Source: Candidatus Saccharimonadia bacterium (GTDB taxonomy: Bacteria; Patescibacteriota; Saccharimonadia; UBA4664; JBIOIQ01). From it: 51,403 nt of DNA. This document shows positions 4,904-50,672 of this stretch, piece by piece. The first letter of the stretch is position 1, and every line of letters begins with the position of its first letter. A program made the translations under genes and the position numbers. The stretch is from NCBI GenBank assembly GCA_044449985.1, contig JBIOIQ010000006.1, positions 1-51,403 on the forward strand, read 5' to 3'. A model generated the notes under the pieces. It had not been told where the DNA came from. It made no database searches and worked only from the letters and a program-made list of their open reading frames with translations.

Positions 4904-5018
4904 CAGGTCAACTATTTGTAAATGAAAAGTCTAAAAGAGGTGAGCCATGTTAATAACTCAAAGTGCAAAGAATACCTTGTTAAACATAAGCGTGATAGTG
5001 TATTCTTAGGTTAAGCTA

Positions 5019-5594
5019 GTGGTAACGATTAATCTACTTCCTAATTTAGTTCTCGACCGAAGACGCCAAGCTCGAATAATGCGGATGGCGACTTTTGCAT
5101 TAGTCGGATGGGTCAGCCTTGCAGTTATTATTGTTTTGCTCGCCTTATCGTATAAGGCATATGAATCTCACCAAGTTACTACTCTGCAAAATCAGTATTC
5201 GAGTTTAAATAGCGACGTCAACTCTACAGACAATATTTCATTCCGAGCGACTGCAGTGGCTGTCCAAACCAGCCTAAAAGCCCTTGATCAGTTGCAGTCA
5301 TCTTATCTAGATCCTCGAGATGTTCTTAATACGGTAAGTCGGTTACTACCTAAGGGGGTAATATTAACCAACATCAAAATTTCTCCGACCCAGAATGTAG
5401 TCATTTCAGGTAAGGCTAATAGCATTCCCGAAGCGATTAAACTTTACTATGCAATCACCCAAAGCCAGACTAACAACAATAATGGCTCACTGGCTTACTT
5501 TACCGGCGTAACCTGGAGCGGAATTAGTTCGGATGGCGGTAACGCTATACCAATTACAGTTTCAGGTAACTATAAGGCGGGGTCAGGACAATGA
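5019..5594 (+). CDS. pilN: Type IV pilus assembly protein PilN-like
   Basis: N-terminal INLLP motif, TM helix, coiled coil, LPKGVILTNI...VVISGKA. Confidence 0.85.
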   Translation: MVTINLLPNLVLDRRRQARIMRMATFALVGWVSLAVIIVLLALSYKAYESHQVTTLQNQYSSLNSDVNSTDNISFRATAVAVQTSLKALDQLQSSYLDPRDVLNTVSRLLPKGVILTNIKISPTQNVVISGKANSIPEAIKLYYAITQSQTNNNNGSLAYFTGVTWSGISSDGGNAIPITVSGNYKAGSGQ

Positions 5595-6175
5595 AGATGC
5601 CCAAAACAAACAACAACCTGTGGGCGTACTTAATTGTTGCTGTAATCGTCGGCGTAGGAGCTTATTTTATTGCGAAACCACTTTATGATGGCGCTCAGAG
5701 CCAAAAAACACTAGCAGCTTCAATCCAAGTCAATATTAATGCTTTAAAAATCCTCAAAACCGAAACTGAAACGTTGCGAACTAACTTTGCAACGGTATCA
5801 AAAGATCAAACAAGAATCCTGCAAGCATTACCTGAGAAATCCCAAGAAGAATTATTACTTCCACAAATGATAAATATTGCATCTTCGACAGGTGTTGGGC
5901 TAAGCGGATTGACAATTGCGCCGGTTGAACAAGGCATCGTCGTTGCAGCAACTCCGGGTAATAATATTCCAGTTGGACTCCTAGCATATCCCTTTACCTT
6001 TACAATTACAGGTAATTATTCGAATCTAAACAATTTCTTTGGTGCTTTGAAACTAAGCGCACGTTACGTTGACGTACAGAGTATAGATTTGTCGTCTGAA
6101 AACAATAATCCTAACAATTTATCAATGAAGGTAATATTAAACGCGTATTATCAGTCAAACGGAGGCACTAACTAA
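5591..6175 (+). CDS. pilO: Type IV pilus assembly protein PilO-like
   Basis: TM, coiled coil, ALP motif, ITGNYSNLNNFF...RYVDV; overlaps the pilN stop. Confidence 0.85.
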   Translation: MKMPKTNNNLWAYLIVAVIVGVGAYFIAKPLYDGAQSQKTLAASIQVNINALKILKTETETLRTNFATVSKDQTRILQALPEKSQEELLLPQMINIASSTGVGLSGLTIAPVEQGIVVAATPGNNIPVGLLAYPFTFTITGNYSNLNNFFGALKLSARYVDVQSIDLSSENNNPNNLSMKVILNAYYQSNGGTN

Positions 6176-6432
6176 TGGCTACAGTGCAAAAAACTGAATT
6201 GCAGCGTCAAATTCCTCAGATTATTACGTTAGTAGTAATAGTACTTATTATTATCGTTTTGCTCATTGGAAATCCATTTAAACAACACACAAAAGTTAAA
6301 ACTGTTGCCCCAGCAACACTAGATACAAGTTTTGATTTGAATGCGCTTCCTGCACTTGAGCTTAGAAGCACTAGCTACCCGGTAATTGTGCCAGATGATC
6401 TCGGTGGTCGAGCTAACCCCTTCGCGCCGTAG
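6175..6432 (+). CDS. Small membrane protein at the PilP position (truncated PilP-like)
   Basis: Single TM and C-terminal GRANPFAP resembling the PilP RxPF motif; lies between pilO and pilC. Confidence 0.55.
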   Translation: MATVQKTELQRQIPQIITLVVIVLIIIVLLIGNPFKQHTKVKTVAPATLDTSFDLNALPALELRSTSYPVIVPDDLGGRANPFAP

Positions 6433-6435
6433 CTT

Positions 6436-7650
6436 ATGCAGCAATTTACCTACCGAGCTAAAGATGAAAAGGGTGTAAATATTTCTGCTCAGGTTGAAGC
6501 AGGGAGTGTTGGTGACGCCGCAAAATTGTTAATAGCCCGAAAATTGTTTCCGTTGAGCATTGAGCCATATAAGGCTAATATATTTAATGGTGGATCACTC
6601 GAAAAACTGCAAAGGGTCACTTCGAAAGACAAAGTTCTTTTTACACGACAATTGGCAACTCTTGTGAAGGCGGGACTTCCTTTAGGAAGAGCTTTGACAA
6701 TACTCCGAGATCAGACCAATAATCCTAAACTTCAGAAAGTTGTGGTAGAAATTAGCGGCAGTATCGAAGGTGGAAGCAGTTTATCCGATGCTTTGAAGAA
6801 ATATCCAAAATATTTTAACAATATATATATAAGTATGGTTCAAGCTGGTGAAGCAAGTGGTAGTCTAGACGATACATTAACACAGCTTGCAGCCCAAGAA
6901 GAGAAAACTGCCGCAGTCAATTCCAAGATAAGAGGTGCATTTACTTATCCTATAGTGGTTCTATCGGTCCTTATTATCGTGGCCGTTCTTATGATTACTC
7001 TAGTTTTACCTCAAGTTGGGAAAATGTATACTGATCTGAAAAAGCCACTCCCATTTCTGACTGCGATACTTCTGGGAACTGCAAATTTGATGATTACCTA
7101 TTGGTATGTGGCGATTTTGTTGCTCATTGGATTAATTGTTGGTGGGGGAGTATATCTTCGGTCCCAAAGTGGAAGGCGAAAATTGGATACTACCAAACTT
7201 AATCTACCTCTCTTTGGTCCACTTATACGGAAACTTTACATGGCTCGACTGGCAAGAACGCTTGGGTCGTTGATTGCTTCGGGAGTTTCCGTGCAAGAGG
7301 CGCTGCTAATATCTTCACGTTCTATGAATAATGTTCTACTCGAAGAAGCACTTCTTAAAATTACCGATAAGGTAAAATCTGGGACGGCTTTATCGACGCT
7401 GGTAGGAGATAATCCCCTGTTCTTACCCTTAGTGGGACAAATGCTAGCAGTGGGTGAGGAAACAGGCACCATTGGCGATAGCCTAAATAAGCTTGCACAG
7501 TATTATGAGGATGAAGTCGATGAAGCCGTCAATAATATATCGACACTTATTGAGCCGGCGACGATGGTTGTTCTCGGAGGGATGGTAGCATTTTTAATTG
7601 CAGCAGTGCTACTTCCGATTTATGGTCTTGTTTCTGTTGTTGGCAATTAA
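6436..7650 (+). CDS. pilC: Type IV pilus platform protein PilC (T2SS F family)
   Basis: FTRQLATLVKAGLPL, AGEASGSL, GAFTYP, VGEETG, LIEP motifs. Confidence 0.95.
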   Translation: MQQFTYRAKDEKGVNISAQVEAGSVGDAAKLLIARKLFPLSIEPYKANIFNGGSLEKLQRVTSKDKVLFTRQLATLVKAGLPLGRALTILRDQTNNPKLQKVVVEISGSIEGGSSLSDALKKYPKYFNNIYISMVQAGEASGSLDDTLTQLAAQEEKTAAVNSKIRGAFTYPIVVLSVLIIVAVLMITLVLPQVGKMYTDLKKPLPFLTAILLGTANLMITYWYVAILLLIGLIVGGGVYLRSQSGRRKLDTTKLNLPLFGPLIRKLYMARLARTLGSLIASGVSVQEALLISSRSMNNVLLEEALLKITDKVKSGTALSTLVGDNPLFLPLVGQMLAVGEETGTIGDSLNKLAQYYEDEVDEAVNNISTLIEPATMVVLGGMVAFLIAAVLLPIYGLVSVVGN

Positions 7651-7694
7651 GATTTCTTGCGTTTGATTGTTGAAATTACGAAATTAAGATAAAG

Positions 7695-7723
7695 TTGACA
7701 ACAAACTCCAATAGCATTATCTT
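7695..7723 (+). promoter_or_regulatory. Sigma70-type promoter for the major pilin
   Basis: TTGACA-17 nt-TATCTT upstream of the ATG at 7761. Confidence 0.6.
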
Positions 7724-7760
7724 TAACCATAAGAAGTAATTAATTCTAGGGTGAGCACTA

Positions 7761-8291
7761 ATGACTGAAATCACATTAAATAAACAAAGAAGCGGTTTTA
7801 CGCTTATTGAACTTGTTATCGTTTTGGCAATCGCAGCCCTAATTATTTTAGTGGTTCTTGAAGCCGTCGGCGCAGCGCAGCGTTCACAGAGGGATTCAGC
7901 GAGAAAGAATGAAGCCGGTCGCTTCGTCTCTTTACTTGAGCAATATGCTTCAAATAATGGTGGGAATTATCCAACAGTTGCGTCTGGTCTCTGGGGTGCT
8001 CCAGTTGGTGCAGCATTGACTGCTGCTCTTAGCACATACGACGCAAATCTATCTGCAAAATATTCGGTTGATCAGGTTGGCGCTACGGTAATTCTTGATC
8101 CTGGTTATGTTACAGCCGCAAGTGCGGGTTGGGCGACAGCAGGTTGTGCAACCGGAGCGGGTGCAACTCACCCAACCGACGACGTCTTGATCTATCGGCC
8201 ACAAACGATCTCTTCGCTGACGGACCGTGACTATGATTTGGCAGTTTGTCTTGAGAGTGGTGGGAATGATATGGTACATCCTTCAAACTAG
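7761..8291 (+). CDS. Type IV pilin, probably the major pilin
   Basis: Class III signal G|FTLIEL and a C-terminal Cys pair; has its own promoter and terminator. Confidence 0.9.
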   Translation: MTEITLNKQRSGFTLIELVIVLAIAALIILVVLEAVGAAQRSQRDSARKNEAGRFVSLLEQYASNNGGNYPTVASGLWGAPVGAALTAALSTYDANLSAKYSVDQVGATVILDPGYVTAASAGWATAGCATGAGATHPTDDVLIYRPQTISSLTDRDYDLAVCLESGGNDMVHPSN

Positions 8292-8306
8292 CTCACAAAT
8301 GTGTTG

Positions 8307-8337
8307 AAAAAACAGGAGCGAGAGCTCCTGTTTTTTT
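8307..8337 (+). terminator. Intrinsic terminator (bidirectional-type)
   Basis: AAAAAACAGGAGC-GAGA-GCTCCTGTTTTTTT. Confidence 0.85.
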
Positions 8338-8463
8338 AGTTAAATATTGTTGAATATCCAAAATGTAAATAAGTGCCGTATCTGTTGGGACAATTATTCA
8401 TTAGCTATTAGATGAAACTGAATGTATTTATTAGGAAAATTTGATATTATTACCATAAGGATT

Positions 8464-9201
8464 ATGACAAGTTGGAGTCAGTTTAAAAATATCAATTCAC
8501 GCGGCTTCACTCTCGTCGAAGTCTCGATAACACTTGCTATTATGATGTTAATCACAGGTTTTGTCGTCGCAGGTGCTACCACAAATATTCGCACTCAAAG
8601 ATTTAGCGAACAAGTCAAAACGTTTGCCAATCTATTTAGCTCTTCCCAGACAACCTCTTATGCAAATAAATTAACAACCAACGGAATTTCCTGTCCTTTG
8701 GCAGGCCAGTCGCCAATCAATAGTTCAAGTAGTTCAGATATTACTACTGCAGTTGGACCTGACGTATGTTTTTGGAGAGGAAATGTCTTGGATTTTACGT
8801 TAAATGGTGGAACGAACAATCCCTACACGATGAGTCTGCTCTATGGAAGTGATATTTCGCAAGCTAGTGCAAACCTTAGCCAACAGGACGGCATTCTCGG
8901 TCAGTTAGCCCCATTAAATAGTTATAATACAAATTCCAATGGACTTGATTTGACGATTAATTATGACTCTGCAAATCCGTCTTGTGGGAGCTCGAATTCT
9001 CCTGTTTGGGTCCCAACTTCTTCATTGTCTGTTGCATTTTTAGCCCCAGACGGCAGTGCTTGGACTGCTACGCCAGGCAACTACGCTTATGTAAATCGGT
9101 ATCCTCTCCAGTTTATCTTAACTGACTCTGGGGTCGCCGGCCTGACTGGAACAGTGACAGTAACTCCCTGCACCGGAAGTATAATTCAGGTAGTGAAATA
9201 A
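8464..9201 (+). CDS. Minor pilin (FimU/GspH-like)
   Basis: G|FTLVEV prepilin motif; ATG 8464 preferred over 8422. Confidence 0.8.
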   Translation: MTSWSQFKNINSRGFTLVEVSITLAIMMLITGFVVAGATTNIRTQRFSEQVKTFANLFSSSQTTSYANKLTTNGISCPLAGQSPINSSSSSDITTAVGPDVCFWRGNVLDFTLNGGTNNPYTMSLLYGSDISQASANLSQQDGILGQLAPLNSYNTNSNGLDLTINYDSANPSCGSSNSPVWVPTSSLSVAFLAPDGSAWTATPGNYAYVNRYPLQFILTDSGVAGLTGTVTVTPCTGSIIQVVK

Positions 9202-9202
9202 T

Positions 9203-9805
9203 ATGGGTATGTTAAGAAGATTTAGTAAACTTGAAAAAGGACAGACCCTGATTGACGTAATAATTGCAATGGCCTTATTAAGCTCGACGGTTGCATCCGC
9301 GGGAGCCATTTCAACTTTATCATCTAGGGTAGGAGATGAAGCCGGCCGGAGAAGCCAGGCCATGGCGCTCGCCGAACGAGATTTGGAGGGACTAAGGGAA
9401 TATCGGGCCGAGGTAATGCTAACGCCGGGGAAAACCTGGGCGGATGTTTTTACTAATGCGGTTGATTCAAGCGGTAATCCATGTACATCTAACTTTGTCA
9501 TGCAGGTAGATGCTACAGGATGGAAGCCGGCACTTTGTGGACTTGGCCATGTTAGCACTTTCGCTAATGCTGAAGCATCCGCCGTGAGCTATAGCGGAGT
9601 TAATATACTTGATACGATCGATCCAAGTATCGCGGTCAATTATCAGGCGTTTTCACGACTGGACATTGTCCAACAGAATGTTAATCCTGCGACCGGAGTT
9701 ACTGATCCGAATTCCGAAATAGTTGAAGTAATTGTTGTTTGGAACGAAGGTAATGGTATGAGATCGGTTCAACTTAATACTGTATTAGCGAATTGGCGAC
9801 AATGA
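9203..9805 (+). CDS. Minor pilin (PilV-like)
   Basis: G|QTLIDV motif (Asp at +5) and C-terminal VEVIVVW. Confidence 0.75.
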   Translation: MGMLRRFSKLEKGQTLIDVIIAMALLSSTVASAGAISTLSSRVGDEAGRRSQAMALAERDLEGLREYRAEVMLTPGKTWADVFTNAVDSSGNPCTSNFVMQVDATGWKPALCGLGHVSTFANAEASAVSYSGVNILDTIDPSIAVNYQAFSRLDIVQQNVNPATGVTDPNSEIVEVIVVWNEGNGMRSVQLNTVLANWRQ

Positions 9806-9806
9806 G

Positions 9807-10397
9807 ATGAAGATAGTATCAAAACAAACTGGGTTCACACTGATGGAGATTGTGGTTGGTATGGCGTTACTTTCTACAACGACAATTCTCGCAACTATCA
9901 GTTATGCATCGATCTCTAGATTGCAGCAGCACGGAGCGGCAGTAAGAGGTGTTCAACAGAATAGCCGATATGTGTTGGAGGCGGTCGCACGTGATATTCG
10001 AAACTCTACCTCTATCTGTATCGTAATTGGGCCTGGAAACTGCGTAACCACTCCAGGTACAAGTGGCACGGGGATGCAACTTAGTAGTAGCTACCTGGGC
10101 GATCAGACCCTGGTTACTTACAGTTTTACCCCGGCCCCAACATACCAGATAGACAGACTAAGTTGTGATGTTGTGACAGATCCAACCTGCGCTACTGCCG
10201 TCGCTCAACCATTGGCGACAGATGTTGTAGTGAAAAACGTCACTTATACTTTGGAAATAGTTAACACGAGATCTTACGTTGTTATAGACATGGATGTCCA
10301 AGAGCTTGATAATGCCGGCCTTGGGATTAACCAAAATGATCCCTATTTTAAGGACTATCAGTTATCGACGGTTGTAGCACCGAGAGGCCAGGAATAA
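9807..10397 (+). CDS. Minor pilin (PilW-like)
   Basis: G|FTLMEI and ARDIRNS motif. Confidence 0.8.
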   Translation: MKIVSKQTGFTLMEIVVGMALLSTTTILATISYASISRLQQHGAAVRGVQQNSRYVLEAVARDIRNSTSICIVIGPGNCVTTPGTSGTGMQLSSSYLGDQTLVTYSFTPAPTYQIDRLSCDVVTDPTCATAVAQPLATDVVVKNVTYTLEIVNTRSYVVIDMDVQELDNAGLGINQNDPYFKDYQLSTVVAPRGQE

Positions 10398-10399
10398 CT

Positions 10400-11701
10400 A
10401 TGAGAAATCAAAAGCAAGCTAGAATTATTGTACTTTTCAGGAAAATCTCGTCGCGTTTAGCTATAAACGAGGCCGGTGCTGTTGCAGTTTTCTTTGCCTC
10501 AATCATGGGAATATTATTACTAGTAGGTACAACTTCGGCAGCTCAGTTAATGGTCAGTGAACTAAATCAATCAACCCAAGTTGATCAGTCAGAACAAGCC
10601 TATTTTGCGGCAGAAGCTGGGGTAGAAGATGCACTCTATCATATAGAACAGTCACAGCAGCTTCATCCGTTAATTCAGGTTTCACCATATTGCATATTTC
10701 CTCAGCAGTTTAATGATATGTCAGATTTTTCGCAGTGCTCAGCAAATTTGCAATATTCACCGGCATTGTCGACTGAAGTCGGTGATTACTCCATTCTTGG
10801 GCAAAATTCAGGAAATCTTCCTCAGAATTATGCAGCATTGGCTGATCCATCACCAAATCCGACTGCCGATGCTGCGAATGTAACTTGGCGAAATCGCAAA
10901 GTATATGATTCGACGACATTTTATGTCGGTACTCAACAGAAAGATCAGACTCTCCAAATTGATGCGAGTGATCTAAGGAGACATCGTGCGACAGGTGATT
11001 GCGGAATCGATGCGTTTGGCAACTCCACTGGGCTCGATTGTGATAATGCTACTTCGATTTTTAGCGATTTTGGTGGGCTTGAATATTGTTGGCAAGCGCC
11101 AGCAGGGACTATCCCAAGTATTGAACTTACAACGGTATCTTGGGCGGCAAGTAGTGTAAATCCGCTTACCAGTACTGTAACAAATGTGCTAACAGACAAA
11201 GCACTATTTACGACTCCTCCAGGTGGTGCGACCCAACTCGTTTATGATGGAACAACGTACATCGGCGCTCTATCACCGGCGGCAAGCACTGGATTCGTAC
11301 CAAACTTACCTGGATTTGGAAATAATTGTATTGTGTTTCAGGTCGATAGTGCCAGGCGATATATTTTCAGAATCAAGCCGCTATTTCCAGTAGCTGGTAT
11401 AAATAATGTGAATCAAGCCGGATATGCAGTTCAGTACCAAGCAAATCTTTTCGATACAGTTTCGTCTCCATTTGCGACTGATGGACAGCTTTATATACCT
11501 AACAATGCGTATTACATTGATGTTGTGGGTCAGGCCGGAGATGTGCGACGTAGGATAGTTGCGAAGGTACTTGATAACAGGCAGTTGATTGGAGTTTTCG
11601 ATTATATTCTTTATTCGGGAGATCCGGTAATTCCGTTATGCAAAGCTGGTGTAGCGCCGTATTATAATACTGCGACATGCATAGCTATTCCCGGTCCATA
11701 A
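10400..11701 (+). CDS. Minor pilin (PilX-like) with a large C-terminal domain
   Basis: G|AVAVF lacks Glu5; QAYFAAEAGVEDAL is the PilX N-terminal motif. Confidence 0.8.
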   Translation: MRNQKQARIIVLFRKISSRLAINEAGAVAVFFASIMGILLLVGTTSAAQLMVSELNQSTQVDQSEQAYFAAEAGVEDALYHIEQSQQLHPLIQVSPYCIFPQQFNDMSDFSQCSANLQYSPALSTEVGDYSILGQNSGNLPQNYAALADPSPNPTADAANVTWRNRKVYDSTTFYVGTQQKDQTLQIDASDLRRHRATGDCGIDAFGNSTGLDCDNATSIFSDFGGLEYCWQAPAGTIPSIELTTVSWAASSVNPLTSTVTNVLTDKALFTTPPGGATQLVYDGTTYIGALSPAASTGFVPNLPGFGNNCIVFQVDSARRYIFRIKPLFPVAGINNVNQAGYAVQYQANLFDTVSSPFATDGQLYIPNNAYYIDVVGQAGDVRRRIVAKVLDNRQLIGVFDYILYSGDPVIPLCKAGVAPYYNTATCIAIPGP

Positions 11702-11740
11702 TGGTGTGAGCTTACTAATTTCAAAAATTGAGGGAACACG

Positions 11741-12805
11741 ATGACGAAGCAAGCCAAAAAAGAGACTAAAAAGTTACCTAGCGGTATGAGTCGTTCGTTT
11801 GTATTTGATTCGACCGGATGGCTCGCCAGTGTTGAGACAATATCTGACTGGTTTAATGGGGTTGTAGTTCGGATTTTGAAATGGCTTCAGAAATTTTCTA
11901 ATCTAGTTTGGGAAATGATTCCGAAAAAATATCGTAAACCGAAACTAATTGGCGCCTGGATTGTTGGATTTATAGCCTTAAACGTCATTATCACCGCGGT
12001 AGGTATTTATGGTTTAGGTTGGCAAAATTGGTACACTCGAAGCGTGAGCTGGATAGTGCCTTATCCGGTTGCTTTCGTAAATGGATCTATGATTAATTAC
12101 CACGATTATTATGGTTATTCGCAGATTATTAAGGCCAATTTGGAGCGTGCTCGATCAATCGATATAACCGCTAAATCAATTGATCAACAAGCACTTGGCG
12201 AATTGATTAATCAATCTTTCTATAATGTTGGTTCTACAAAATATCAGGTTAGCGTGACAGATGGGGATGTAAATAGTGCAGTAAGTTCGGTGTTTACCGA
12301 ATACGGTGGAGAAGCCACGGCGATGACTGTGATAAAACAATCTTCCGGGATGAATCTTTCCCAATATTCAAACGCAGTACGCAATTCAATCTTACGCAGT
12401 CGACTCGATAATAAGATTCAACTTGATCCTGTTGCAATTGCCGCTACCAGGACCCAAGCAACTCTAGTACTTTTATCCATCCTTCATGGTGGAGATTTTT
12501 CTTCACTTGCAAAACAATATTCAAAAGAGCAATCCTTTACGTCTGATGGTCAAGTAGCGACAACCCCGTCAACTAACCTCCCAACTATTGCACAACGTGC
12601 ACTCTATGCGGTAAACGATGGAAGTGTTGTAGCAACACTGACGATCGACGGCAACAGAATGTATATACTTAAACGAATTTCTAGCTCTAATGGGGTAATA
12701 AATGCTCAAGTAATACTTTTTGAAACTCCCGGGATCGATCAATGGTTAATTTCGCAGTATAAAAGCGCCAAAATTTATCGTTTGTTGTGGCAGACGAAAG
12801 CTTAA
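11741..12805 (+). CDS. Membrane-anchored SurA/PrsA-like foldase with degenerate parvulin domain
   Basis: TM, VPYPVAFVNG, SurA-N-like helices, GGDFSSLAKQYS. Confidence 0.7.
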   Translation: MTKQAKKETKKLPSGMSRSFVFDSTGWLASVETISDWFNGVVVRILKWLQKFSNLVWEMIPKKYRKPKLIGAWIVGFIALNVIITAVGIYGLGWQNWYTRSVSWIVPYPVAFVNGSMINYHDYYGYSQIIKANLERARSIDITAKSIDQQALGELINQSFYNVGSTKYQVSVTDGDVNSAVSSVFTEYGGEATAMTVIKQSSGMNLSQYSNAVRNSILRSRLDNKIQLDPVAIAATRTQATLVLLSILHGGDFSSLAKQYSKEQSFTSDGQVATTPSTNLPTIAQRALYAVNDGSVVATLTIDGNRMYILKRISSSNGVINAQVILFETPGIDQWLISQYKSAKIYRLLWQTKA

Positions 12806-12849
12806 GTACGATTGCCAAATGAATTACGCTTATGGTAATATCTAGTTAA

Positions 12850-13890: not shown

Positions 13891-13954
13891 ACTCGGAAGT
13901 TTAATCGGATCGATCTGGTGGCGCATGAGCGTAAGCGTTATAATATAAGTATCT

Positions 13955-15736: not shown

Positions 15737-15757
15737 AGCTTAAGACAGGATAATGTA

Positions 15758-16828: not shown

Positions 16829-16894
16829 GGTGCTAAGTCCAGCCAGCTGGAAGCGTTTCATGACCCTTGAACGGGAGTTGCTTTGATTTCGAGC

Positions 16895-37067: not shown

Positions 37068-37148
37068 GGTTGCAAAATATATATATACCCTTATGTCTCG
37101 GGGCAGATTTTGTTATGATATAAGCGTAAGCGTAAAACGATTGGGGTA

Positions 37149-40582: not shown

Positions 40583-40596
<14 letters not shown>
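39100..40596 (+). CDS. atpA: F1-like ATPase alpha subunit (divergent)
   Basis: GRVVTPLGEPID, GQR, P-loop GDSKSGKST, YDDLS, PGRDSYPGDMFY, SITDGQI, SVSRVGG. Confidence 0.88.
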
Positions 40597-43096
<2,500 letters not shown>

Positions 43097-44170
43097 TTAT
43101 TGATCTATGTGGTAATCAAAAACATAGCCAACACCGATGGCTGGTGAGTTTATTGTACTTATGCTAAAGCCACTGGTACTTCGATTAACGTAGTAACCTA
43201 AGGGCACGCCAGCCGTACTGGAAGGATCTGGACCAATCGGTGTAATAGTGACGTGGGGTATTGCACCGTAAGCCGCTCTAAAACTGATATTAACTAGAGT
43301 CCCTGCGGCCGGGGATTGACCGGTATTAATAACAATGGTACCGGCCGTATCGTTGCCGCTTATTGAAACGGTACCAGCGGGGCCAACGCCTGCACCTGTT
43401 GAAACGCCTGGTTGAGAACCGCCCGTAATAATGTGCCCTCCGATGGTCAGCGTTGTGGTCGAGGTGAGACTAGCTGCCGAAAAATTACTTGTGGTCAGAG
43501 AACCCCCAACTGTTAAGTTTCCTGTAACCGTTAAGCCAGCTGTAGTTAGTAGCTGTGCGATCGTCACATCACCCTGGAGATGTGACGTGCCAGCAACTGT
43601 GACGTTGCTTCTAAATGCGGTATCTCCAAGCGTTGTTGCGCCGTTAACATTAAGTTGCGTCAGACTAGTGTTTCCCGCCGATAGTTGCGTGATACTAGTA
43701 CTACCGGCTGTTAGGTTGTTGCCTAATTTGACATCCTTTTCGACCGACAAAGTCCCGTTAAAAACCGCATTAGGTGAGACTACCAAGGATTCAGTGCCTG
43801 TCCCAATGGCGTTTCCACTTACTCCTAGCTGATCGAGTAAGTTCTTGTTCAAAACAATATTTGCGAGACTTCCTGAAGTACTCGATTTTGCCTGCTTCCT
43901 GATAAAATACGTCACAATTGCAACGTTTGCTCCTATCAGGACAACAATTACGGCGAGGGCGATAAAGGTCGCCCGGTGGCTAGGACGGAAAGTTCTGCGT
44001 GCCAGTTTGATCGGTTTCTTTGGTGCGCCTTTTTGCGATTGCGCAGCGTCATCACTACGAGGTTGCAGAACAACCGGACCGGCCTCGGGAGTGTCCGCAG
44101 TATCCGCTTCGGATGAAACCTGCTGTGCTTGATTTCGTTGCGAATCCTTTGATTGATCCATAACTTCCAC
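43097..44170 (-). CDS. Membrane-anchored fibre-like protein (beta-repeat shaft plus C-terminal beta domain)
   Basis: Cytoplasmic N-tail, TM, LTVxG repeats, GHIITGG...ISGNDTAGTIVINTG...PHVTITP; start 44170 (GTG) or 44161. Confidence 0.7.
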   Translation of the reverse strand: MEVMDQSKDSQRNQAQQVSSEADTADTPEAGPVVLQPRSDDAAQSQKGAPKKPIKLARRTFRPSHRATFIALAVIVVLIGANVAIVTYFIRKQAKSSTSGSLANIVLNKNLLDQLGVSGNAIGTGTESLVVSPNAVFNGTLSVEKDVKLGNNLTAGSTSITQLSAGNTSLTQLNVNGATTLGDTAFRSNVTVAGTSHLQGDVTIAQLLTTAGLTVTGNLTVGGSLTTSNFSAASLTSTTTLTIGGHIITGGSQPGVSTGAGVGPAGTVSISGNDTAGTIVINTGQSPAAGTLVNISFRAAYGAIPHVTITPIGPDPSSTAGVPLGYYVNRSTSGFSISTINSPAIGVGYVFDYHIDQ

Positions 44171-44279
44171 TTATTGCTTGCGTAATTATAGCGCTTAAGC
44201 TTTATCCGAAGCAAATCTATAAGGTTAGGTTTATCGTAAGCGGTTTGCAAAACAGGAGGGCATAGGCCACAATATTCAT

Positions 44280-44996
44280 ATGTTGCGGCGTTTGTTATTG
44301 GTGGCGGCGATACTTGGGCTGCTTGCACAAGTTACCTATGCTGATACGCTTAAATCTTCCCATTTTGAGGTTGATGAAAGTTTTATCGGTGGAGGTGGTT
44401 TGATCAATGAAAATTCTTCTAATTTTTCTGCTGCTGAATCGATTGGGGATGCTGGGATAGGACTGTCGAACTCAACTAGTTATATTTCCAACTCAGGATA
44501 TACTACTGATAATGATCCAGCGCTAAGTTTTTACGTTTCTTCCACGCCAGTTACATTTACAACTCTTTCTCCTCTGACTGCAGCAACCGCGACTTCAACT
44601 TTTAGCGTCGTAAATTACACCAGCTGGGGGTATGTCGTCCAGATAATTGGCAATACACCCTCCTATGTCGGTCATTCCATACCTGCTATGGGGACGTTAG
44701 GTCCATCACAGGTGGGGACCGAACAATACGGCATCAACTTAGTAGCAAACATCTCACCAATTTCATTTGGATCAAATCCGGACAATGGAACCCCGGTATT
44801 TGGCTATGGTCAGGCCGCAACGGGGTATAATACAGCGAATAATTATAAATATGCCAGCGGAGACACGATTGCTAATGCTCCTAAAAGCTCTGGTAAAACT
44901 AATTACACCATCTCATATATTATGAATGTGACCAATGTGACGCCCGGTGGAGTCTACACTACCCAGCAACAATTAATTTGCACCGGAACTTACTGA
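44280..44996 (+). CDS. Secreted WxL/pilin-like protein (single-domain paralog)
   Basis: Signal peptide; shares GTEQYGINLVAN, YNTANNYKY and YTTQQQLICTGTY with the three downstream paralogs. Confidence 0.65.
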   Translation: MLRRLLLVAAILGLLAQVTYADTLKSSHFEVDESFIGGGGLINENSSNFSAAESIGDAGIGLSNSTSYISNSGYTTDNDPALSFYVSSTPVTFTTLSPLTAATATSTFSVVNYTSWGYVVQIIGNTPSYVGHSIPAMGTLGPSQVGTEQYGINLVANISPISFGSNPDNGTPVFGYGQAATGYNTANNYKYASGDTIANAPKSSGKTNYTISYIMNVTNVTPGGVYTTQQQLICTGTY

Positions 44997-45018
44997 AAAG
45001 AGTTTGATCTGGAAAAAC

Positions 45019-45058
45019 GTTGTAAAAAATCTGTTGTAAAAAATCTGTTGTAAAAAAT
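45019..45058 (+). repeat. 14-bp tandem repeat, nearly three copies (GTTGTAAAAAATCT)
   Basis: Read directly; ends 2 bp before TTGACA. Confidence 0.9.
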
Positions 45059-45060
45059 AC

Positions 45061-45090
45061 TTGACACCCCTAAAACGCTAATGCTAAGGT
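45061..45090 (+). promoter_or_regulatory. Sigma70 promoter with AGCRTWAGCRT motif in the spacer
   Basis: TTGACA-18 nt-TAAGGT with extended TG; ACGCTAATGCT at 45075-45085. Confidence 0.65.
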
Positions 45091-45159
45091 TGAGCTAACA
45101 AACTATAAACCGTGCAAAAAGCACAACAGACAAACCAAGGGTAGGAAACCGTAACAAAA

Positions 45160-46197
45160 ATGCAAAGATTAAAGCGAGTATTATCAAGACTTGTCATAGT
45201 CGCGCTTATATTAAGCTTGATCCCGGCTTTGCCTGTGTTTGCTGGTCAGATCACTGCCCGGTCTTTGACTATTAGTACATCACAGGGCAATACTGCTGCG
45301 ACTTGGAGTTTTGCATTTACGGTACCTTCAACCACGGTACTGAAGTCTGTTCGTTTTGAAGTCTGCACCACAGCGGCTTTAACTTGTACTGTGCCAACCG
45401 GGTGGGTGAATACCGGCTCTACACTTAGCTCGACCACTGGTATTGGTGCGGGATGGACAATCGATCTCGCAACGAACTCAGATAGTTTGGGCATAACAAA
45501 TGCCAGTAACTCAACGTCTTCTTCCGGTGCTACTACGGTAGTCTTTCACACTGTGACTAACCCAAATACGGTTAATACAAGCTGGTATGTCCGGATGACC
45601 ACGTATTCAACTTCAACTTATTCAACCCAAGTTGATGCTGGTACTGTAACCGCTTCAACTACGCAACAAATTAGTTTGACCGGAATAATGCCTGAGTCAC
45701 TGGTTTTCTGTACAGGTACAACCATAACTGGTACCGACTGCAGTACAATCACGGGAAGCACTGTCAACTTCGGTCTATTCTCGGCCATCTCAACTGCATC
45801 GGGGAGCTCGGTAATGGCTGCTTCAACGAATGCCGGTTCCGGATATGTCATCACGGTCAACGGAAATACGCTTCAGTCCGGCGCAAATTCAATTACGCAA
45901 ATGTCTTCTTCGACAACATCGGTCATTGGAACTAGCCAGTTTGGGATGAACTTAAAAGCTAATACCATTCCTTCGGTCGGTGCTGAAGTTACCGGACCGG
46001 GAAGTTCAGCCTCAACAGCCGGATACAATACTGTGAATAACTTCAAATATACGACTGCCGATACAGTTGCAAACTCAGGCGGAGCCGCCTCGGACGCAAA
46101 TACTTTCACTGTTTCATATATTGTAAACGTCCCAGGAAACCAGGCCGCTGGTACCTATACCACTACACTAACTTACATCTGTACAGCAACTTTTTAA
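45160..46197 (+). CDS. Secreted two-domain WxL/pilin-like protein, paralog 1
   Basis: Signal VFA|G, Thr/Ser-rich beta protein with Cys pairs, C-terminal AGTYTTTLTYICTATF. Confidence 0.75.
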   Translation: MQRLKRVLSRLVIVALILSLIPALPVFAGQITARSLTISTSQGNTAATWSFAFTVPSTTVLKSVRFEVCTTAALTCTVPTGWVNTGSTLSSTTGIGAGWTIDLATNSDSLGITNASNSTSSSGATTVVFHTVTNPNTVNTSWYVRMTTYSTSTYSTQVDAGTVTASTTQQISLTGIMPESLVFCTGTTITGTDCSTITGSTVNFGLFSAISTASGSSVMAASTNAGSGYVITVNGNTLQSGANSITQMSSSTTSVIGTSQFGMNLKANTIPSVGAEVTGPGSSASTAGYNTVNNFKYTTADTVANSGGAASDANTFTVSYIVNVPGNQAAGTYTTTLTYICTATF

Positions 46198-46274
46198 AGG
46201 AGGGTATTGAACAAAAAATAAAACCAATTATTAACTGTTAGAACAACTACACGCACACTTTGAAATTAAAAATC

Positions 46275-46304
46275 TTGACTTCCTCATAATGCTAATGCTA
46301 ATAT
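46275..46304 (+). promoter_or_regulatory. Sigma70 promoter with AGCRTWAGCRT motif in the spacer
   Basis: TTGACT-18 nt-TAATAT with extended TG; ATGCTAATGCT at 46289-46299. Confidence 0.65.
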
Positions 46305-46370
46305 AAGTACAACCTTAAGTGCACAAAGCACGAAAAAGCAAAAACGCAAAAGGGGAAAAAAATAAAAAAT

Positions 46371-47408
46371 ATGAATAGACTGAAGAAGCTATTTTCTCGC
46401 GTAGTAATACTAAGTCTGATACTCAGTATGTTTTACGTGTTACCGGCTTCAGCATCACAAATAACCGCGCGAACGCTGCTAATCAGTACATCGCAGGGAA
46501 ATACACCGGCAACTTGGACACTGACTTTTACCGTGCCAAACTTAACGGCACTCAAGTCAGTTCGCTTTCAAGTTTGTACTACCGCAGCCCTAACCTGTAC
46601 GATACCCACCGGGTGGACAAACACCGGTGCGACTTTGGGTTCAACGATCGGCATCGGGGCAGGCTGGACTATAGATCTCGCCACAAACTCGGATAGCCTT
46701 GGTATCACAAACCCCGGTAATGTAACGGCATCTTCAGGGCCGACGACGGTGGTTTTCAATAATGTCACTAATCCAAATACTGTTAACACTAGTTGGTATG
46801 TTAGGATTACTACTTATACAGATGCGACTTATACAACGCTCCTAGACTCCGGTACTGTCACTGCTTCGACTACTCAACAGATCCAACTAACCGGAATAAT
46901 GCCTGAGTCCCTAGTGTTTTGTACTGGTACCAGTATTTCCGGCACAGACTGCAGTAGTATCACCGGCAACACGGTTAATTTTGGTTTGTTTTCAGCCATC
47001 TCGACTGCATCTGGTACTTCAGTGATGGCTGCTTCAACTAATGCGGGATCTGGTTACGCCATAACGGTAAACGGTAATACCCTGCAGTCTGGCGCCAACT
47101 CCGTCACGCAAATGTCAGCCTCAGCCGCAGCGGTTATAGGCACCAGTCAATTTGGCATGAACTTAAAAGCCAATACTGCGCCTTCGGTTGGTACTGAAGT
47201 AGCAGGACCAGGTTCGTCGGTATCTTCGGTCGGGTATAACACGGTAAATAATTTCAAATATACCACTGGTGACACAGTAGCCAGTTCTTTGGGGGCTGCT
47301 TCAGATGCGAATACTTTTACGGTTTCTTATATTGTAAATGTTCCCGGTAATCAGCAAGCCGGTACTTATACAACCACTCTAACCTATATTTGCACCGCCA
47401 CTTTTTAG
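46371..47408 (+). CDS. Secreted two-domain WxL/pilin-like protein, paralog 2
   Basis: Same length as paralog 1 and colinear with it; identical C-terminus. Confidence 0.75.
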   Translation: MNRLKKLFSRVVILSLILSMFYVLPASASQITARTLLISTSQGNTPATWTLTFTVPNLTALKSVRFQVCTTAALTCTIPTGWTNTGATLGSTIGIGAGWTIDLATNSDSLGITNPGNVTASSGPTTVVFNNVTNPNTVNTSWYVRITTYTDATYTTLLDSGTVTASTTQQIQLTGIMPESLVFCTGTSISGTDCSSITGNTVNFGLFSAISTASGTSVMAASTNAGSGYAITVNGNTLQSGANSVTQMSASAAAVIGTSQFGMNLKANTAPSVGTEVAGPGSSVSSVGYNTVNNFKYTTGDTVASSLGAASDANTFTVSYIVNVPGNQQAGTYTTTLTYICTATF

Positions 47409-47496
47409 TGACTTTGCTCTTATCTACATAAATCGTCTTTACAGCCTAATAGCACTGGTGTTAATCTAGGAGTAATTAAAGTGCTTGTGGTTTTTG

Positions 47497-48567
47497 ATGA
47501 ATTATCGACGCCTGTTGGGTGTGCCGGATGTTCGAAAGCTTGTTCGTTGGCTGACGATCGCGACATTGATCGCGGCTTTGTTGCCAATTTTACCGGCACA
47601 AGCTGCCCAGATAACTAGTCGAAAACTTACGATCGGTACGTCACTTGGAAACGCGGCGACAACTTGGAATTTTAGTTTCACGGTTCCGACTACTGGTACG
47701 ACCTTAAGAGGGATGCGTTTTGAAGTATGCACTACCGCATCTGGTACATGTACCGTGCCGACCGGTTGGGTTAATACGGGGGCCACATTGGCCTCACAAC
47801 CAACAAATGCTGGTACTGGTTGGACAATTGACCTCTCAACTTATTCGGATAGCCTAGGTATTACTACGGGATCCAGTCAATCAATTACCGGTGGTGGAGT
47901 GCTGGCGGTTAACTTCAATACTGTTACGAATCCAAATACGACGAACACCACATGGTATGTCCGAATTTCAACATATAATGGCGCATCATATACTACCCAA
48001 GTTGACACTGGTACTGTGACTGCCAGTACTGCTACACAAATTGTTGTATCCGGAACTATGCCTGAATCTCTCATCTTCTGTACTGGTACAAGTATTACCG
48101 GCACAAATTGTGCCACGATCACAGGCAGTACTGTAGCTCTAGGGTTTTTCTCGCCTACGAGTACGGTTTATGGTACGTCAATCATAGGAGCATCTACTAA
48201 TGCCGGTAGTGGGTATGTTATAACAGTTAACGGGGCAACATTAACTTCGGGGGCTAATACAATTCCTGCTATGGGATCAGCCACTACATCAAATGTTGGG
48301 ACTGGGCAATTCGGGTTAAATCTAGTGGCGAATACGTCTCCGTCTGTAGGTACGGCTGTTTCGGGACCTGGTACTTCAACTGCCTTCACCAACTACGATA
48401 CTGTCAATAATTTCAAGTTTACTACTGGCGACACCGTGGCTACTTCCGGGGGTGCTGCTTCGGATGTCAATGTGTTTACAGTGTCTTATATCGCCAACGT
48501 CGCTGGAAATCAAGCCACTGGCAACTACACCTCAACCCTAACTTATATTTGTACGGCGACTTTCTAG
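47497..48567 (+). CDS. Secreted two-domain WxL/pilin-like protein, paralog 3
   Basis: Signal AQA|A, colinear with paralogs 1 and 2, ends GNYTSTLTYICTATF; start uncertain (47485/47497/47521). Confidence 0.75.
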   Translation: MNYRRLLGVPDVRKLVRWLTIATLIAALLPILPAQAAQITSRKLTIGTSLGNAATTWNFSFTVPTTGTTLRGMRFEVCTTASGTCTVPTGWVNTGATLASQPTNAGTGWTIDLSTYSDSLGITTGSSQSITGGGVLAVNFNTVTNPNTTNTTWYVRISTYNGASYTTQVDTGTVTASTATQIVVSGTMPESLIFCTGTSITGTNCATITGSTVALGFFSPTSTVYGTSIIGASTNAGSGYVITVNGATLTSGANTIPAMGSATTSNVGTGQFGLNLVANTSPSVGTAVSGPGTSTAFTNYDTVNNFKFTTGDTVATSGGAASDVNVFTVSYIANVAGNQATGNYTSTLTYICTATF

Positions 48568-49560
48568 ATGCGCTCTAGGCGACACATCGCGACCATTAGC
48601 TTGGCCATCGGTGTTTTGGGAAACTTGGCTTTGCCTTTTATCGCATCAGGAGCAACATCTCCGGCACCTGCTAACGCACCAGGTTCGGGTGAGGGGCTCG
48701 AATTATCTCCACCAATTGTCCAACTTTCGGCCGATCCGGGTCAAACCATCGTGACTAATATTCGTATCCGAAATATTACCCAAGAAAATTTATATGCGAC
48801 ACCGGTTGCTGATGACTTTGGCGCTAAAGGTGAAAATGGCGATCCGCAAATATTACTTGATGAAACTCAAGCCACTAGATATTCGCTTAAGTATTGGATA
48901 GAGGGTATGGCACCGATACTTCTCGTACCTAATGAAATCAAGACGGCATCGGTAAAAATTGTGATTCCTGCCAATGCTGAACCCGGTGGACACTATGGTG
49001 TAGTAAGGTTCACTGCCACACCGGCCGGATTAGAGGGGAGCGGTGTGGCTTTATCTGCCAGCATCGGAACTCTAATTTTACTTCGAGTAAACGGTCCCGT
49101 GACTGAAAAACTTTCGTTGGTTGATATGTTCTTGAGTAAAAATGGCACTACCGGGTCATTTTTTGAAAATGGGCCACTTATGATTACCCAACGCATTAGT
49201 AACTCGGGGACGGTTCATTTAGAGCCCATTGGTAGCGTCATTGTGACCAATATGTTCGGGAAAAAAATTGCCTCTCTTGATATTAATAATCCGCCCCGAA
49301 ATATTTTACCGGATAGCATTCGCAGGTTTGATGAGACGCTTACGAGTACCTGGATGTTTGGTCGCTACACTGCCAGTCTAAAAGTTACATATGGACAAAC
49401 GAATGGTAGCTTTGTGACAAGTCTGAGCTTTTGGGTCATACCTTGGAAATTATTGCTTATCAGTTTAGTGTTAATAATCATATTCTTGTTTGGACTTCGA
49501 TTTGCAGTGCGACGCTACAACCAATATATAATCGCTCAAGCACGGCGAGCTAAGAAGTAA
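48568..49560 (+). CDS. DUF916/DUF3324 (WxL-interacting)-like membrane-anchored protein, putative assembly chaperone/anchor
   Basis: LELSPP, IRIRN, IPANAEPGGHYG, ISNSGTVHL, NILPDSIRRF, GRYTA, FWVIPW and a C-terminal TM with basic tail; ATG abuts the paralog 3 stop. Confidence 0.7.
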   Translation: MRSRRHIATISLAIGVLGNLALPFIASGATSPAPANAPGSGEGLELSPPIVQLSADPGQTIVTNIRIRNITQENLYATPVADDFGAKGENGDPQILLDETQATRYSLKYWIEGMAPILLVPNEIKTASVKIVIPANAEPGGHYGVVRFTATPAGLEGSGVALSASIGTLILLRVNGPVTEKLSLVDMFLSKNGTTGSFFENGPLMITQRISNSGTVHLEPIGSVIVTNMFGKKIASLDINNPPRNILPDSIRRFDETLTSTWMFGRYTASLKVTYGQTNGSFVTSLSFWVIPWKLLLISLVLIIIFLFGLRFAVRRYNQYIIAQARRAKK

Positions 49561-49602
49561 GTTCAGATGAAGAACAGGTAGCATAAGTGGTATAATACGG
49601 GC

Positions 49603-50586
49603 GTGTATTCTCGTATTAAAATTAGTTACCATCGCTACAGCGGAAGATTTTTACCCCACGCACATACATCATATGCCAGTCTGGCTTTTTTAATTATTTT
49701 GATGGCGGTAGTGCTCGGGACTACTACCGTTGGGGTAGAGTCGTACAATTATGGAGATCCAAATCCCGGTCCTTTTGCTGGTTCGGTCGCTCTTACCGGA
49801 ACGGTCAAAGAACCGCCACCGACACAGGCCGCAGTGATTACGAATCCGACGAATGGTCAGAGTTTTAGCGCAACTCCGATTACCGTTAATGGCACCTGTC
49901 CCACCGGTACGATTATCGAGCTGTTTAAAAATAATATATTTGCTGGCTCGACACCCTGTCAGAACGACGCGACTTTTAGTCTCCAGACAGATTTGCTCTA
50001 TGGGCCAAATGCATTAGTTGCCCAAGTATTTGACGTACTAGATCAGGCTGGTCCATTTTCGAATACGGTAAATGTGAATTACACCGCCTTGCCACAACAG
50101 ACGGCACCGATAGATTCGAGTAACCTTAATGATATCCAGTTATTACTCAGAACTAGCCCCGTATACCGAGGAATCTTTCCAGGTACTCCCTTAAGCGTGC
50201 CGATTGACGTGATTGCCGGAAGTCCTCCATTTGCTATCAATATCGACTGGGGAGATAACACGAGTGATCTTATATCTCGAGCCGATAATACTGAATTTAA
50301 TGCCAATCATACCTATGCGAAGCCGGGGACTTATCAAATAACGCTTCGTGCGACCGATAACAAAGGTCGTTTGGCATTTTTGACTTTTATTGCAGTTGTA
50401 AACGGGAAAGCTGAAATTGCCGGATCGGTTACTACTACTCCGACGCTAACCTCTGGACGTAATACGTTGTTAATTGTCTGGCCACTCCTGGGAGTAGCCG
50501 GTTTGCTGGTGTCAAGTTTCTGGTTTGGCGAAAGGCGTGAAAAACAAAAACTAGCCGAACGCGGCGAGTTAATTCCGGCGACATAA
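49603..50586 (+). CDS. Membrane protein with Ig-like and PKD domains
   Basis: N-terminal TM, ITNPTNG Ig-like domain, IDWGD...HTYAKPGTY PKD motif, C-terminal TM. Confidence 0.75.
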   Translation: MYSRIKISYHRYSGRFLPHAHTSYASLAFLIILMAVVLGTTTVGVESYNYGDPNPGPFAGSVALTGTVKEPPPTQAAVITNPTNGQSFSATPITVNGTCPTGTIIELFKNNIFAGSTPCQNDATFSLQTDLLYGPNALVAQVFDVLDQAGPFSNTVNVNYTALPQQTAPIDSSNLNDIQLLLRTSPVYRGIFPGTPLSVPIDVIAGSPPFAINIDWGDNTSDLISRADNTEFNANHTYAKPGTYQITLRATDNKGRLAFLTFIAVVNGKAEIAGSVTTTPTLTSGRNTLLIVWPLLGVAGLLVSSFWFGERREKQKLAERGELIPAT

Positions 50587-50672
50587 TTTGTTCAATTATT
50601 ACAGGTTCAAAATAAGCATAATAAGCTTGGCAAACCAGTAAAAAACGCTTATGCTATAGGCATAGGAGTTTA

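Follow-up and report, generated by a model that had tools for sequence, protein, structure and literature searches.

Two kinds of described promoter element are close to the sequence studied here. TRTGn extended -10 promoters, also called "-16 region" promoters, occur in Gram-positive bacteria, and the marbox of MarA, SoxS and Rob is an asymmetric global-regulator box that occurs in either orientation and at several promoter positions. The window analyzed here (contig JBIOIQ010000006.1, or C6, at its whole length of 51,403 nt, from the Candidatus Saccharimonadia assembly GCA_044449985.1) contained copies of a short box, AGCRT-W-AGCRT, that a first-pass annotation had read as a promoter motif shared by pilus, F1-like ATPase and fibre genes. 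These copies are members of a genome-wide and order-wide, promoter-embedded cis-element with the asymmetric core AGCATAAGC, and AGCRT-W-AGCRT is a fair description of its stronger copies. Similar to the TRTGn promoters, the box in one orientation and position supplies TATG(C/G) directly before TAnnnT; unlike them, its conserved part is 5-6 bases longer, contains two GC dinucleotides and occurs in both orientations and also away from the -10 element, whereas the average promoters of the genome show only a G at -14. Similar to the marbox, it is asymmetric and usually a single site, its orientation and position co-vary (7 of 7 boxes before a -35-like hexamer had one orientation) and its targets are many and mixed, but it is shorter (9-11 bp), and the survey of DNA-binding proteins contained no AraC-family member. 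No promoter motif or regulon of Saccharibacteria or the candidate phyla radiation (CPR), nor this motif, turned up in full-text literature searches as judged from the listings, and the 15 matches to motif words that were listed, of 590, looked unrelated by title.

The genome that holds the window (G000) comprised 692 kb in 18 contigs and was 76% complete. Its genes were called by a crude, home-made procedure that took the longest open reading frames (ORFs) greedily and without overlap, leaving 64,183 nt of intergenic and 629 kb of coding DNA. An iterated weight matrix converged on wAGCATAAGCAtt, i.e. AGCATA-AGCAtt, which revealed AGCATAAGC as the true core; GCTTATGC is the same core word. The core was found 18, 63 and 263 times in intergenic DNA at 0, 1 and 2 mismatches, whereas 0.8, 16.9 and 181.5 copies were expected from an order-2 Markov model, and coding DNA scaled to the same length gave 0.7, 15.1 and 174.9. 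The 8-mer AGCATAAG, with 33 intergenic and 21 coding copies (15-fold per base), ranked beside TATAAT, TTGACA and Shine-Dalgarno (AAGGAGG) words among the most intergenic-enriched 8-mers of G000. At one mismatch or less, the box was present in 75 of the 515 intergenic regions, about one in seven, and the window, with 9 copies per 3.4 kb of spacer, held about twice the genome average. Two genomes were used for comparison, the closed 1.19-Mb G001 from the same family but another genus and the 0.72-Mb G018 from another family. Their intergenic counts at 0 and 1 mismatch were 24 and 122 in G001 (2.5 and 38.9 in scaled coding DNA) and 24 and 69 in G018 (1.1 and 16.2). In G001, AGCATAAG (57 intergenic, 40 coding) was the most abundant among the strongly intergenic-enriched 8-mers listed.

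The GC dinucleotides were the best-conserved positions of the box. A palindromic dimer site GCnTAnGC was tried and rejected: among the ten words of this form only GCATAAGC was strongly enriched (18 copies vs 2.2), and GCTTAAGC occurred 6 times and GCATATGC not at all, a misfit to independent symmetric half-sites. Since GCATAAGC alone was strongly enriched and GCATATGC was absent, the box is asymmetric and holds no hidden palindrome. The flanks of 33 aligned copies were not conserved, save for a subfamily on contig C10, where a longer repeat, AAGCCTC-TTTA-AGCATAAG-T-CTTTGGCTCCGG, was present four times (at 2187, 3740, 4167 and 5160). One of its copies abuts the 3' end of tRNA-Asn, and the other three have flanks like tRNA 3' ends, with no tRNA called by ARAGORN.

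The order, whose members are ultra-small bacteria, was sampled with 31 genomes of 12 families and the phylum with 80 further genomes, relatives not being independent samples, and the reversed box pattern served as a rough control. AGCATAAGC exceeded this control in all 31 genomes of the order, 600-kb genomes included. The excess was mostly about 5- to 15-fold (26:3 in G000, 46:3 in G001 and 49:5 in G012), with smaller margins in G002 (19:8), G004 (38:17) and G025 (27:14). The box and reversed counts were mostly alike in the 80 other genomes, and the box-rich exceptions outside the order included G092 from the same class (23:1), G043 (21:3), G087 (20:3), G052 (15:1) and G069 (14:0), as well as G095.

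The five exact copies of AGCRTWAGCRT claimed for the window (at 13928, 37123, 45075, 46289 and 50645) were all present, as were the one-mismatch copies at 4983 and 12826, and the four two-mismatch copies (8452, 44191, 44233 and 49580) read as described. About 0.2 exact matches had been expected by chance, in agreement with dinucleotide shuffles (mean 0.23, largest 2), and five were reached in 0 of 100 shuffles. The window held 10 one-mismatch matches in all, of which the eight besides 4983 and 12826 were mostly inside ORFs, and 15 matches at one mismatch or less against 5.6 expected. In the direction of the downstream gene, two of the exact copies read AGCGT-A-AGCGT and three its reverse complement, all five genes being on the + strand. 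The copies were said to be all intergenic and beside -10-like elements, which was correct for every listed copy except 8452, located inside a longest ORF. Pfam matches placed a type IV pilus cluster at 5019-17686 (PilN, PilO, PilC, prepilins, PilM, PilB, PilT and prepilin peptidase), F1 alpha, gamma, beta and epsilon subunits at 39082-43096, preceded by three ORFs without assignment, and exported paralogues without Pfam assignment together with a PKD protein at 44280-50586. The copies were as follows.

4983..4993, + strand: box copy AACATAAGCGT, with one mismatch to AGCRTWAGCRT and to the 9-mer core; the pilN-like ORF 5019 begins 26 nt downstream.
8452..8462, + strand: doubtful copy ACCATAAGGAT, inside the longest ORF 8422-9201 and directly before its internal ATG 8464 (prepilin gene).
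12826..12836, - strand: box copy (+ strand ACGCTTATGGT), overlapping the -10-like TAATAT by one base.
13928..13938, + strand: exact box copy AGCGTAAGCGT, followed directly by TATAAT, 10 nt before the pilB ATG (13955).
37123..37133, + strand: exact box copy AGCGTAAGCGT, 3 nt after the -10-like TATGAT and 16 nt before the first ORF of the F1-like operon (37149).
44191..44201, - strand: nearly palindromic copy (- strand AGCTTAAGC), 2 nt upstream of the TATAAT of the leftward gene 43097-44170.
44233..44243, + strand: weak copy ATCGTAAGCGG with 2 mismatches, before gene 44280.
45075..45085, - strand: exact box copy (+ strand ACGCTAATGCT), between TTGACA and the -10-like TAAGGT, 75 nt before gene 45160.
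46289..46299, - strand: exact box copy (+ strand ATGCTAATGCT), flanked by TTGACT and TAATAT; gene 46371 begins 72 nt further on.
49580..49590, + strand: box copy AGCATAAGTGG with TATAAT immediately after it; this hexamer stops 6 nt short of the GTG of gene 49603.
50645..50655, - strand: exact core (+ strand ACGCTTATGCT); the large fibre gene 50673 begins 18 nt downstream.

The PilN match of gene 5019 was weak and below the cut-off, whereas pilM (12850) matched PilM_2 with an E value of 4.9e-46. As judged from its sequence, the 8452 copy could instead be a ribosome-binding site (TAAGGA); the N_methyl motif lies at residues 25-48 of ORF 8422-9201, so a later start suits this gene. Gene 49603 has a PKD-domain match. 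The exported family that includes 44280, 45160, 46371 and 47485 has eight members in G000, and six of them were boxed.

The copies were concentrated at promoters. Convergent spacers held 1 of 33 copies, though they made up 13% of the intergenic length of G000. In co-directional spacers, 9 copies had the same orientation as the genes and 15 the opposite one, compared with 43:13 for TATAAT and 26:5 for TTGACA; weight-matrix matches were split 80:79. The register relative to the -10 element was scored in G000 and G001 pooled, and exact 8-mers in the pool of G000, G001 and G018. In 33 of 133 opposite-orientation copies, a -10-like hexamer began at the last box base or the next (null 3.6%), an arrangement that yields GCTTATG(C/G)-TAnnnT, an extended -10 of the TRTGn type. 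In 11 of 111 same-orientation copies, the hexamer began two bases further on (k=2; null 1.8%). Among the 78 exact 8-mers, 33 had a -10-like hexamer 0-5 nt downstream (null 15%) and 7 were followed by a -35-like hexamer (null 2.6%), the latter all among the 38 same-orientation boxes; 14 came after a -10-like hexamer, which was not an enrichment (null 12.5%), and 24 fitted none of the three scored arrangements (null 70%). A fixed spot directly before the -10 element and a single orientation, which characterize extended -10 elements, were both lacking in the box. Nor was it a universal feature of promoter spacers, since 315 aligned -10-like hexamers gave only the G at -14 and a T-rich stretch at -22/-23. 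Of 2010 regions, 261 had one site, 26 had two and 1 had three. Paired, helically phased sites were therefore rejected: 27 of the 288 occupied regions were multi-site, and no spacing was preferred save for three +/- pairs at 20-24 bp.

In the window, the copies at 45075 and 46289 sit downstream of TTGACA or TTGACT and upstream of the -10 element, in the spacer. At 12826, 13928, 49580 and 44191 a -10-like hexamer is no more than about two bases away, and the copy at 50645 has a weaker TATAGG after it. The box came after the -10 element at the F1-like operon, at trkA and at pilB of G017. Promoters of the leaderless type were the norm in G000, as at 12850, 22859, 30904 and 49603 of the window; the distance from the 315 -10-like hexamers to the start codon peaked sharply at 6-9 nt (30, 15, 10 and 10 cases, with 1-5 at most other distances). 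At pilM, TAATAT ends 8 nt before the ATG.

The box was conserved at orthologous genes. Sharing was tested on reciprocal-best-hit pairs of G000 and G001 with upstream regions of their own in both genomes, a gene being boxed when a copy with one mismatch or less lay within 150 nt upstream. Among the 202 pairs, 18 were boxed in both genomes, 23 and 22 in one only and 139 in neither (odds ratio (OR) 4.9, p 9e-5). At pilM the box was in the same place, with GCTTATGTT followed by AGGAT in G001, and the flush arrangement with the -10 element was kept there and at the second pilB. The orientation was flipped at pilB, where the distance also differed, and likewise at the fibre gene, truncated by the contig end in G000; its G001 orthologue of about 7 kb has an exact AGCATAAGC before TATAAT. 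In the spacer of the divergent pair 43097/44280, AGCTTAAGC stood two bases before TATAAT in both genomes, as AGCTTAAGCg(c/t)TATAAT, and the block CGTAAGC(G/A)GTTTGCAAA around 44233 was also kept when compared by eye. Other shared targets were the second pilB/OTCase spacer, the second pilM, gtrA, trkA (TATA-ATCATAAGC three bases before the ATG), groES (with the box after a CIRCE element), a Pam-family gene (with the box just before the -35 element), LytR_cpsA_psr, the PucR-like regulator and several genes without assignment. The G001 orthologue of gene 45160 had no box (4 mismatches). The region before groES on contig C3 of G000 (about 48420-48500) contained a CIRCE-like inverted repeat, TTAGCACTC-N9-GAGTGCTAA, and then AGCATAAGA, both kept in G001. 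The closest relative of PilB, in G017, had TATAATGGG-AGCATAAG at its promoter.

The F1-like operon escaped the ortholog pipeline through a short upstream ORF call and was compared by eye. Its G001 orthologue had the same 15-mer, AGCGTAAGCGTAAAA, downstream of a TATAAT and 18 nt from the start. In 140 nt before the first gene of this operon in relatives, the paralogous second cluster included, the 9-mer was found with one mismatch or less at 11 of 29 loci, and several other loci showed TATAAT-CATAA(C/G) or AAGCGTAAC-N3-TATAAT by eye. Many relatives have two copies of the first gene. In G000, the second, paralogous F1-type cluster is at about 21178-26982 of contig C8 (loci L154 and L059), and its first gene is 45% identical to the window gene 37149-38006; the cluster continues with gamma, beta and epsilon, beta being called as two adjacent ORFs (L059 5343-6188 and 6195-6650). 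No Pfam Fo a or c subunit was found among the ORFs scanned at either F1-type cluster.

The targets were mixed, with a bias to exported proteins. The box was said to be absent before housekeeping genes, and among window genes with their own promoters this was so: the 9-mer with one mismatch or less preceded 0 of 13 genes in the housekeeping block (17.7-36.7 kb) and 10 of 17 in the pilus, F1-like and Pam blocks, the groups having been set after looking. Genome-wide the statement failed. The Pfam survey of 81 box-flanking genes outside the window revealed exact copies before the housekeeping genes ParA and GtrA and in the DUF2061/GyrB spacer, and further copies at FtsH, DnaX, SHMT, TyrRS, NusA, GroES, Hsp20, HU, triose-phosphate isomerase (tpiA), PGK, MetK, TGT and TrkA, as well as at regulators (two histidine kinases, PadR and the PucR-like protein). 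Surface or exported targets were dockerin proteins (two with GH26), a second PilB, a prepilin, PilM, four genes of a putative Pam-type locus on C4, five genes without assignment on C13, DUF4232, a class A penicillin-binding protein, LytR_cpsA_psr, HtrA and peptidase A4. Equal frequency in coding DNA or before housekeeping genes had been named beforehand as marking a generic promoter feature; equal frequency in coding DNA was not seen (18 exact intergenic copies vs 0.7 scaled), and housekeeping carriers exist. Exported or N-terminally anchored proteins were recognized with a home-made Kyte-Doolittle proxy (a 15-residue window of at least 1.9 within the first 70 residues), and their genes were enriched about 2-fold in all three genomes.

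G000: 35 of 75 boxed vs 108 of 379 unboxed genes exported (OR 2.20, p 0.0027).
G001: 51 of 124 boxed vs 174 of 713 unboxed genes exported (OR 2.16, p 1.8e-4).
G018: 33 of 74 boxed vs 89 of 315 unboxed genes exported (OR 2.04, p 0.008).

The control words TTGACA, GGTATAAT and AAGGAGG gave ORs of 1.0-1.2 in G001, which were not significant; the reversed pattern matched 8 genes there, 0 of them exported, also not significant. Upstream lengths were alike in the exported and other classes of G000. The bias was inflated because paralogues were counted repeatedly, and with one gene per paralogue family the OR was 1.46 (p 0.25) in G000, 1.92 (p 0.004) in G001 and 2.07 (p 0.015) in G018, so that the enrichment asked for by the first-pass annotation was present in three genomes but lost its significance in G000. 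Cytoplasmic-class genes were boxed as well, 31 of 258 in G000, 56 of 525 in G001 and 25 of 221 in G018. The box thus favours pilus and other surface-protein genes without being limited to them.

We consider it about an even chance (roughly 50%) that the box is the operator of a sequence-specific DNA-binding protein common to all Saccharimonadales. The earlier description as a regulator site stands in so far as the box is non-random, promoter-associated and behaves like a protein-binding site; no matching binder was found. Protein binding, the sign of regulation and the signal sensed are predicted here, and the mechanism would be as follows. Two head-to-tail hexamers, AGCATA-AGCAtt, would be bound by a lineage-wide protein, usually at one copy inside the RNA polymerase footprint and in either orientation, directly upstream of the -10 element, a few bases upstream of the -35 element or just after the -10 element at the start site. 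The bound protein would modulate initiation at about one promoter in seven, and repression would be the likeliest effect because the site overlaps the polymerase footprint. Its target set would lean to exported and surface proteins, namely both type IV pilus loci, Pam-type pilin paralogues, dockerin proteins and cell-wall enzymes, and would include F1-like ATPase operons and housekeeping genes too. The box is a concrete bait for finding the regulator, offers a means of predicting which genes, many without known function, are co-controlled with the pili that epibionts are thought to use on their hosts, and provides a practical promoter feature for the genetic tools under development for cultivable relatives. 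The box is so common that a conserved copy before the F1-like operon says little about the function of the ATPase, which warns against inferring the function of any one operon from its presence. The copy had been taken as independent support for tying this ATPase to appendages rather than to energy metabolism; it raises the odds of a surface link only modestly and does not count independently against an energy-metabolism role.

Several points weigh against this reading. No obvious binder was present among the roughly 15 recognisable DNA-binding proteins of the 76%-complete G000; this is the chief weak point of the operator reading and leaves an element read by the polymerase itself, or by a general factor on it, as a live rival. 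The commonest position of the box is flush with the -10 element, where the opposite copy gives TATGn, a TRTG-like extended -10, and single sites without helical-phase pairing are also expected of a core element read by the polymerase. The exported bias of G000 was not significant after paralogue collapse. Two limits of method count as well, the gene calls being crude longest ORFs and the -10 and -35 elements being consensus matches rather than mapped starts. The two best-conserved regulator candidates also failed in their distribution. Searches for the tandem PucR-like pair, which is disfavoured, found none in the box-rich genus g7 (three genomes, of which G006 is 97% complete) or in the box-rich genomes outside the order, including G092; the OmpR-type regulator, likewise disfavoured, was not found at E 1e-40 in 7 of the 31 relatives, G002, G003, G011 and G014 among them.

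The survey covered the box-flanking genes and the predicted cytoplasmic proteins of up to 330 aa outside the window. The recognisable DNA-binding proteins of G000 were an OmpR-type regulator, a Crp-like protein, ArsR, two PadR, MarR, a Fur-family protein, Xre, LexA, NrdR, HrcA, YebC, HU, ParB and the tandem PucR-like pair. Conservation between G000 and G001 was highest for the LexA, HU, PucR-like and OmpR-type proteins, which were 85-89% identical (85% for the OmpR-type regulator) where the median was 63%. The PucR-like pair (GGDEF_2 and HTH_30) is located at 1289-3656 of contig C14; its first protein is 85% identical in G001, a box with one mismatch or less lies upstream in both genomes, and the pair was found in 25 of 31 relatives and 5 of the 80 phylum genomes. 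An exact box also lies upstream, in both genomes, of a 137-aa protein (contig C5 5751-6164, locus L051, - strand), which has a HEIGH metallopeptidase motif and a C-terminal CxxC...CxxC zinc ribbon, is weakly IrrE/ImmA-like and is 82% identical in G001. Neither this protein nor a 65-aa conserved boxed protein had a significant Pfam or NCBIfam match. The only HTH_17 candidate was a 146-aa protein on C15, which shows two weak segments of this family and lacks a G001 orthologue. PamR was rejected as the regulator because it is a structural RbmA-like anchor in the passages available from Troman et al. 2026 (PMC13278184).

Sigma factors and DnaA were also considered as readers. One sigma-70-family gene (PF04542) each was present in G000, in G018 (97% complete) and in G008 (98%), and the latter two genomes are box-rich (38:2 and 33:5), which disfavours an alternative sigma factor. 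The DnaA box has the consensus TTATNCACA. On contig C3 of G000, four one-mismatch canonical DnaA boxes cluster within 220 nt directly before dnaA (5486-5705), which is likely an origin or a dnaA control region. This region held no AGCATAAGC at one mismatch or less, and DnaA is disfavoured as the reader.

A bolder version of the favoured reading holds that the reader belongs outside the recognised regulator families and is the master switch of the surface proteome of Saccharimonadales. We regard this as tentative and rather doubtful. If it were true, both type IV pili, the Pam pili, dockerin-tagged enzymes, cell-wall enzymes and the F1-like operons would be under one signal, for example host contact, the F1-like ATPases would be co-regulated with appendages, and no global regulatory circuit would have been defined in a CPR bacterium before this one.

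The rival that survives best is a core-promoter element read by the holoenzyme or by a general polymerase-bound factor, which would define a lineage-specific class of strong promoters and amount to an enlarged extended -10 or "-16 region" (GCTTATGn-TAnnnT) that works without a dedicated regulator. This reading is possible but unlikely in our view. The 33 of 133 opposite-orientation sites flush with the -10 element, which give TATG(C/G)-TAnnnT and so match TRTGn, and the conservation of this arrangement at pilM and the second pilB are what such an element would produce. The sites are single, no regulator with a matching distribution was found, and the presence of the box in every genome of the order, even those of 600 kb, agrees with a reader as universal as the single sigma factor. 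However, the other orientation was equally enriched and stood before the -10 element in a different register (k=2), 7 of the 38 same-orientation exact boxes preceded a -35-like hexamer, conserved copies followed the -10 element at the F1-like operon and trkA, and 24 of the 78 exact boxes were outside the three scored arrangements. The aligned -10 elements, moreover, showed the usual G at -14 and no box.

The first-pass annotation had proposed a dedicated regulator whose sites define a surface-appendage regulon of type IV pilus, Pam-type pilus, fibre and F1-like ATPase genes. The contrast within the window (10 of 17 against 0 of 13), the six boxed members of the eight-member Pam-pilin-like family, the boxed second pilB, pilin and pilM locus on C1 and the exported bias with an OR of about 2 in three genomes are in its favour. 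The claim did not survive the genome-wide counts, in which about 15% of the intergenic regions (75/515), including those of housekeeping genes, were boxed. Cytoplasmic-class genes carried the box in G000, G001 and G018, copies before groES, trkA, gtrA and LytR_cpsA_psr were shared with G001, an exact copy stood before parA in G000, and the bias was only 1.5- to 2-fold after paralogue collapse. Such a regulon is distinctly improbable.

That the box has no separate function is very improbable. It would then be a by-product of overlapping or tandem -10-like hexamers (TATGCT, TAGCAT and TAAGCT) and of AT-rich spacer composition. TATGCT within the box does fit TAnnnT and seems to be the -10 element itself at some leaderless genes (C9 20056 and C2 4583), and 89 of the 133 opposite-orientation sites contain such a hexamer by construction. 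But composition predicted 0.8 exact copies under the order-2 Markov model against the 18 seen, the GC dinucleotides were best conserved, and only GCATAAGC of the ten GCnTAnGC words stood out (18 vs 2.2). Most of the other Patescibacteria genomes searched showed no excess, though their -10 usage may differ. Finally, an alternative-sigma promoter, a diverged DnaA box, a DNA-uptake sequence or a miniature mobile repeat is extremely improbable: TTATGC resembles the start of TTATNCACA, but the canonical variants before dnaA are without a box, the box-rich genomes G000, G018 and G008 have one sigma-70-family gene each, and tens of copies (26 exact in G000), almost all intergenic and without conserved flanks save on C10, do not suit an uptake sequence or a repeat.

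The remaining observations concern other parts of the window and other words. A one-mismatch match to AGCRTWAGCRT (AACGTTAGCAT) at 29384-29394, in the region of the 12-nt gap between the divergent pgl and zwf and overlapping the pgl start codon, differs from the 9-mer core at 3 positions and probably arose by chance. An Rfam search of the window gave one tRNA only. The ORF directly upstream of the pilus cluster, at 629-4903, encodes 1424 aa with a hydrophobic segment at the N terminus and matched no Pfam family. In G001, a second family of intergenic words was found, consisting of TAGTTAGA/TCTAACTA (16 intergenic and 2 coding copies), CTAACTAG and GTCTAACA; the related words GTCTAA and TCTAACA were enriched in G000 too, and this family may be another cis-element.

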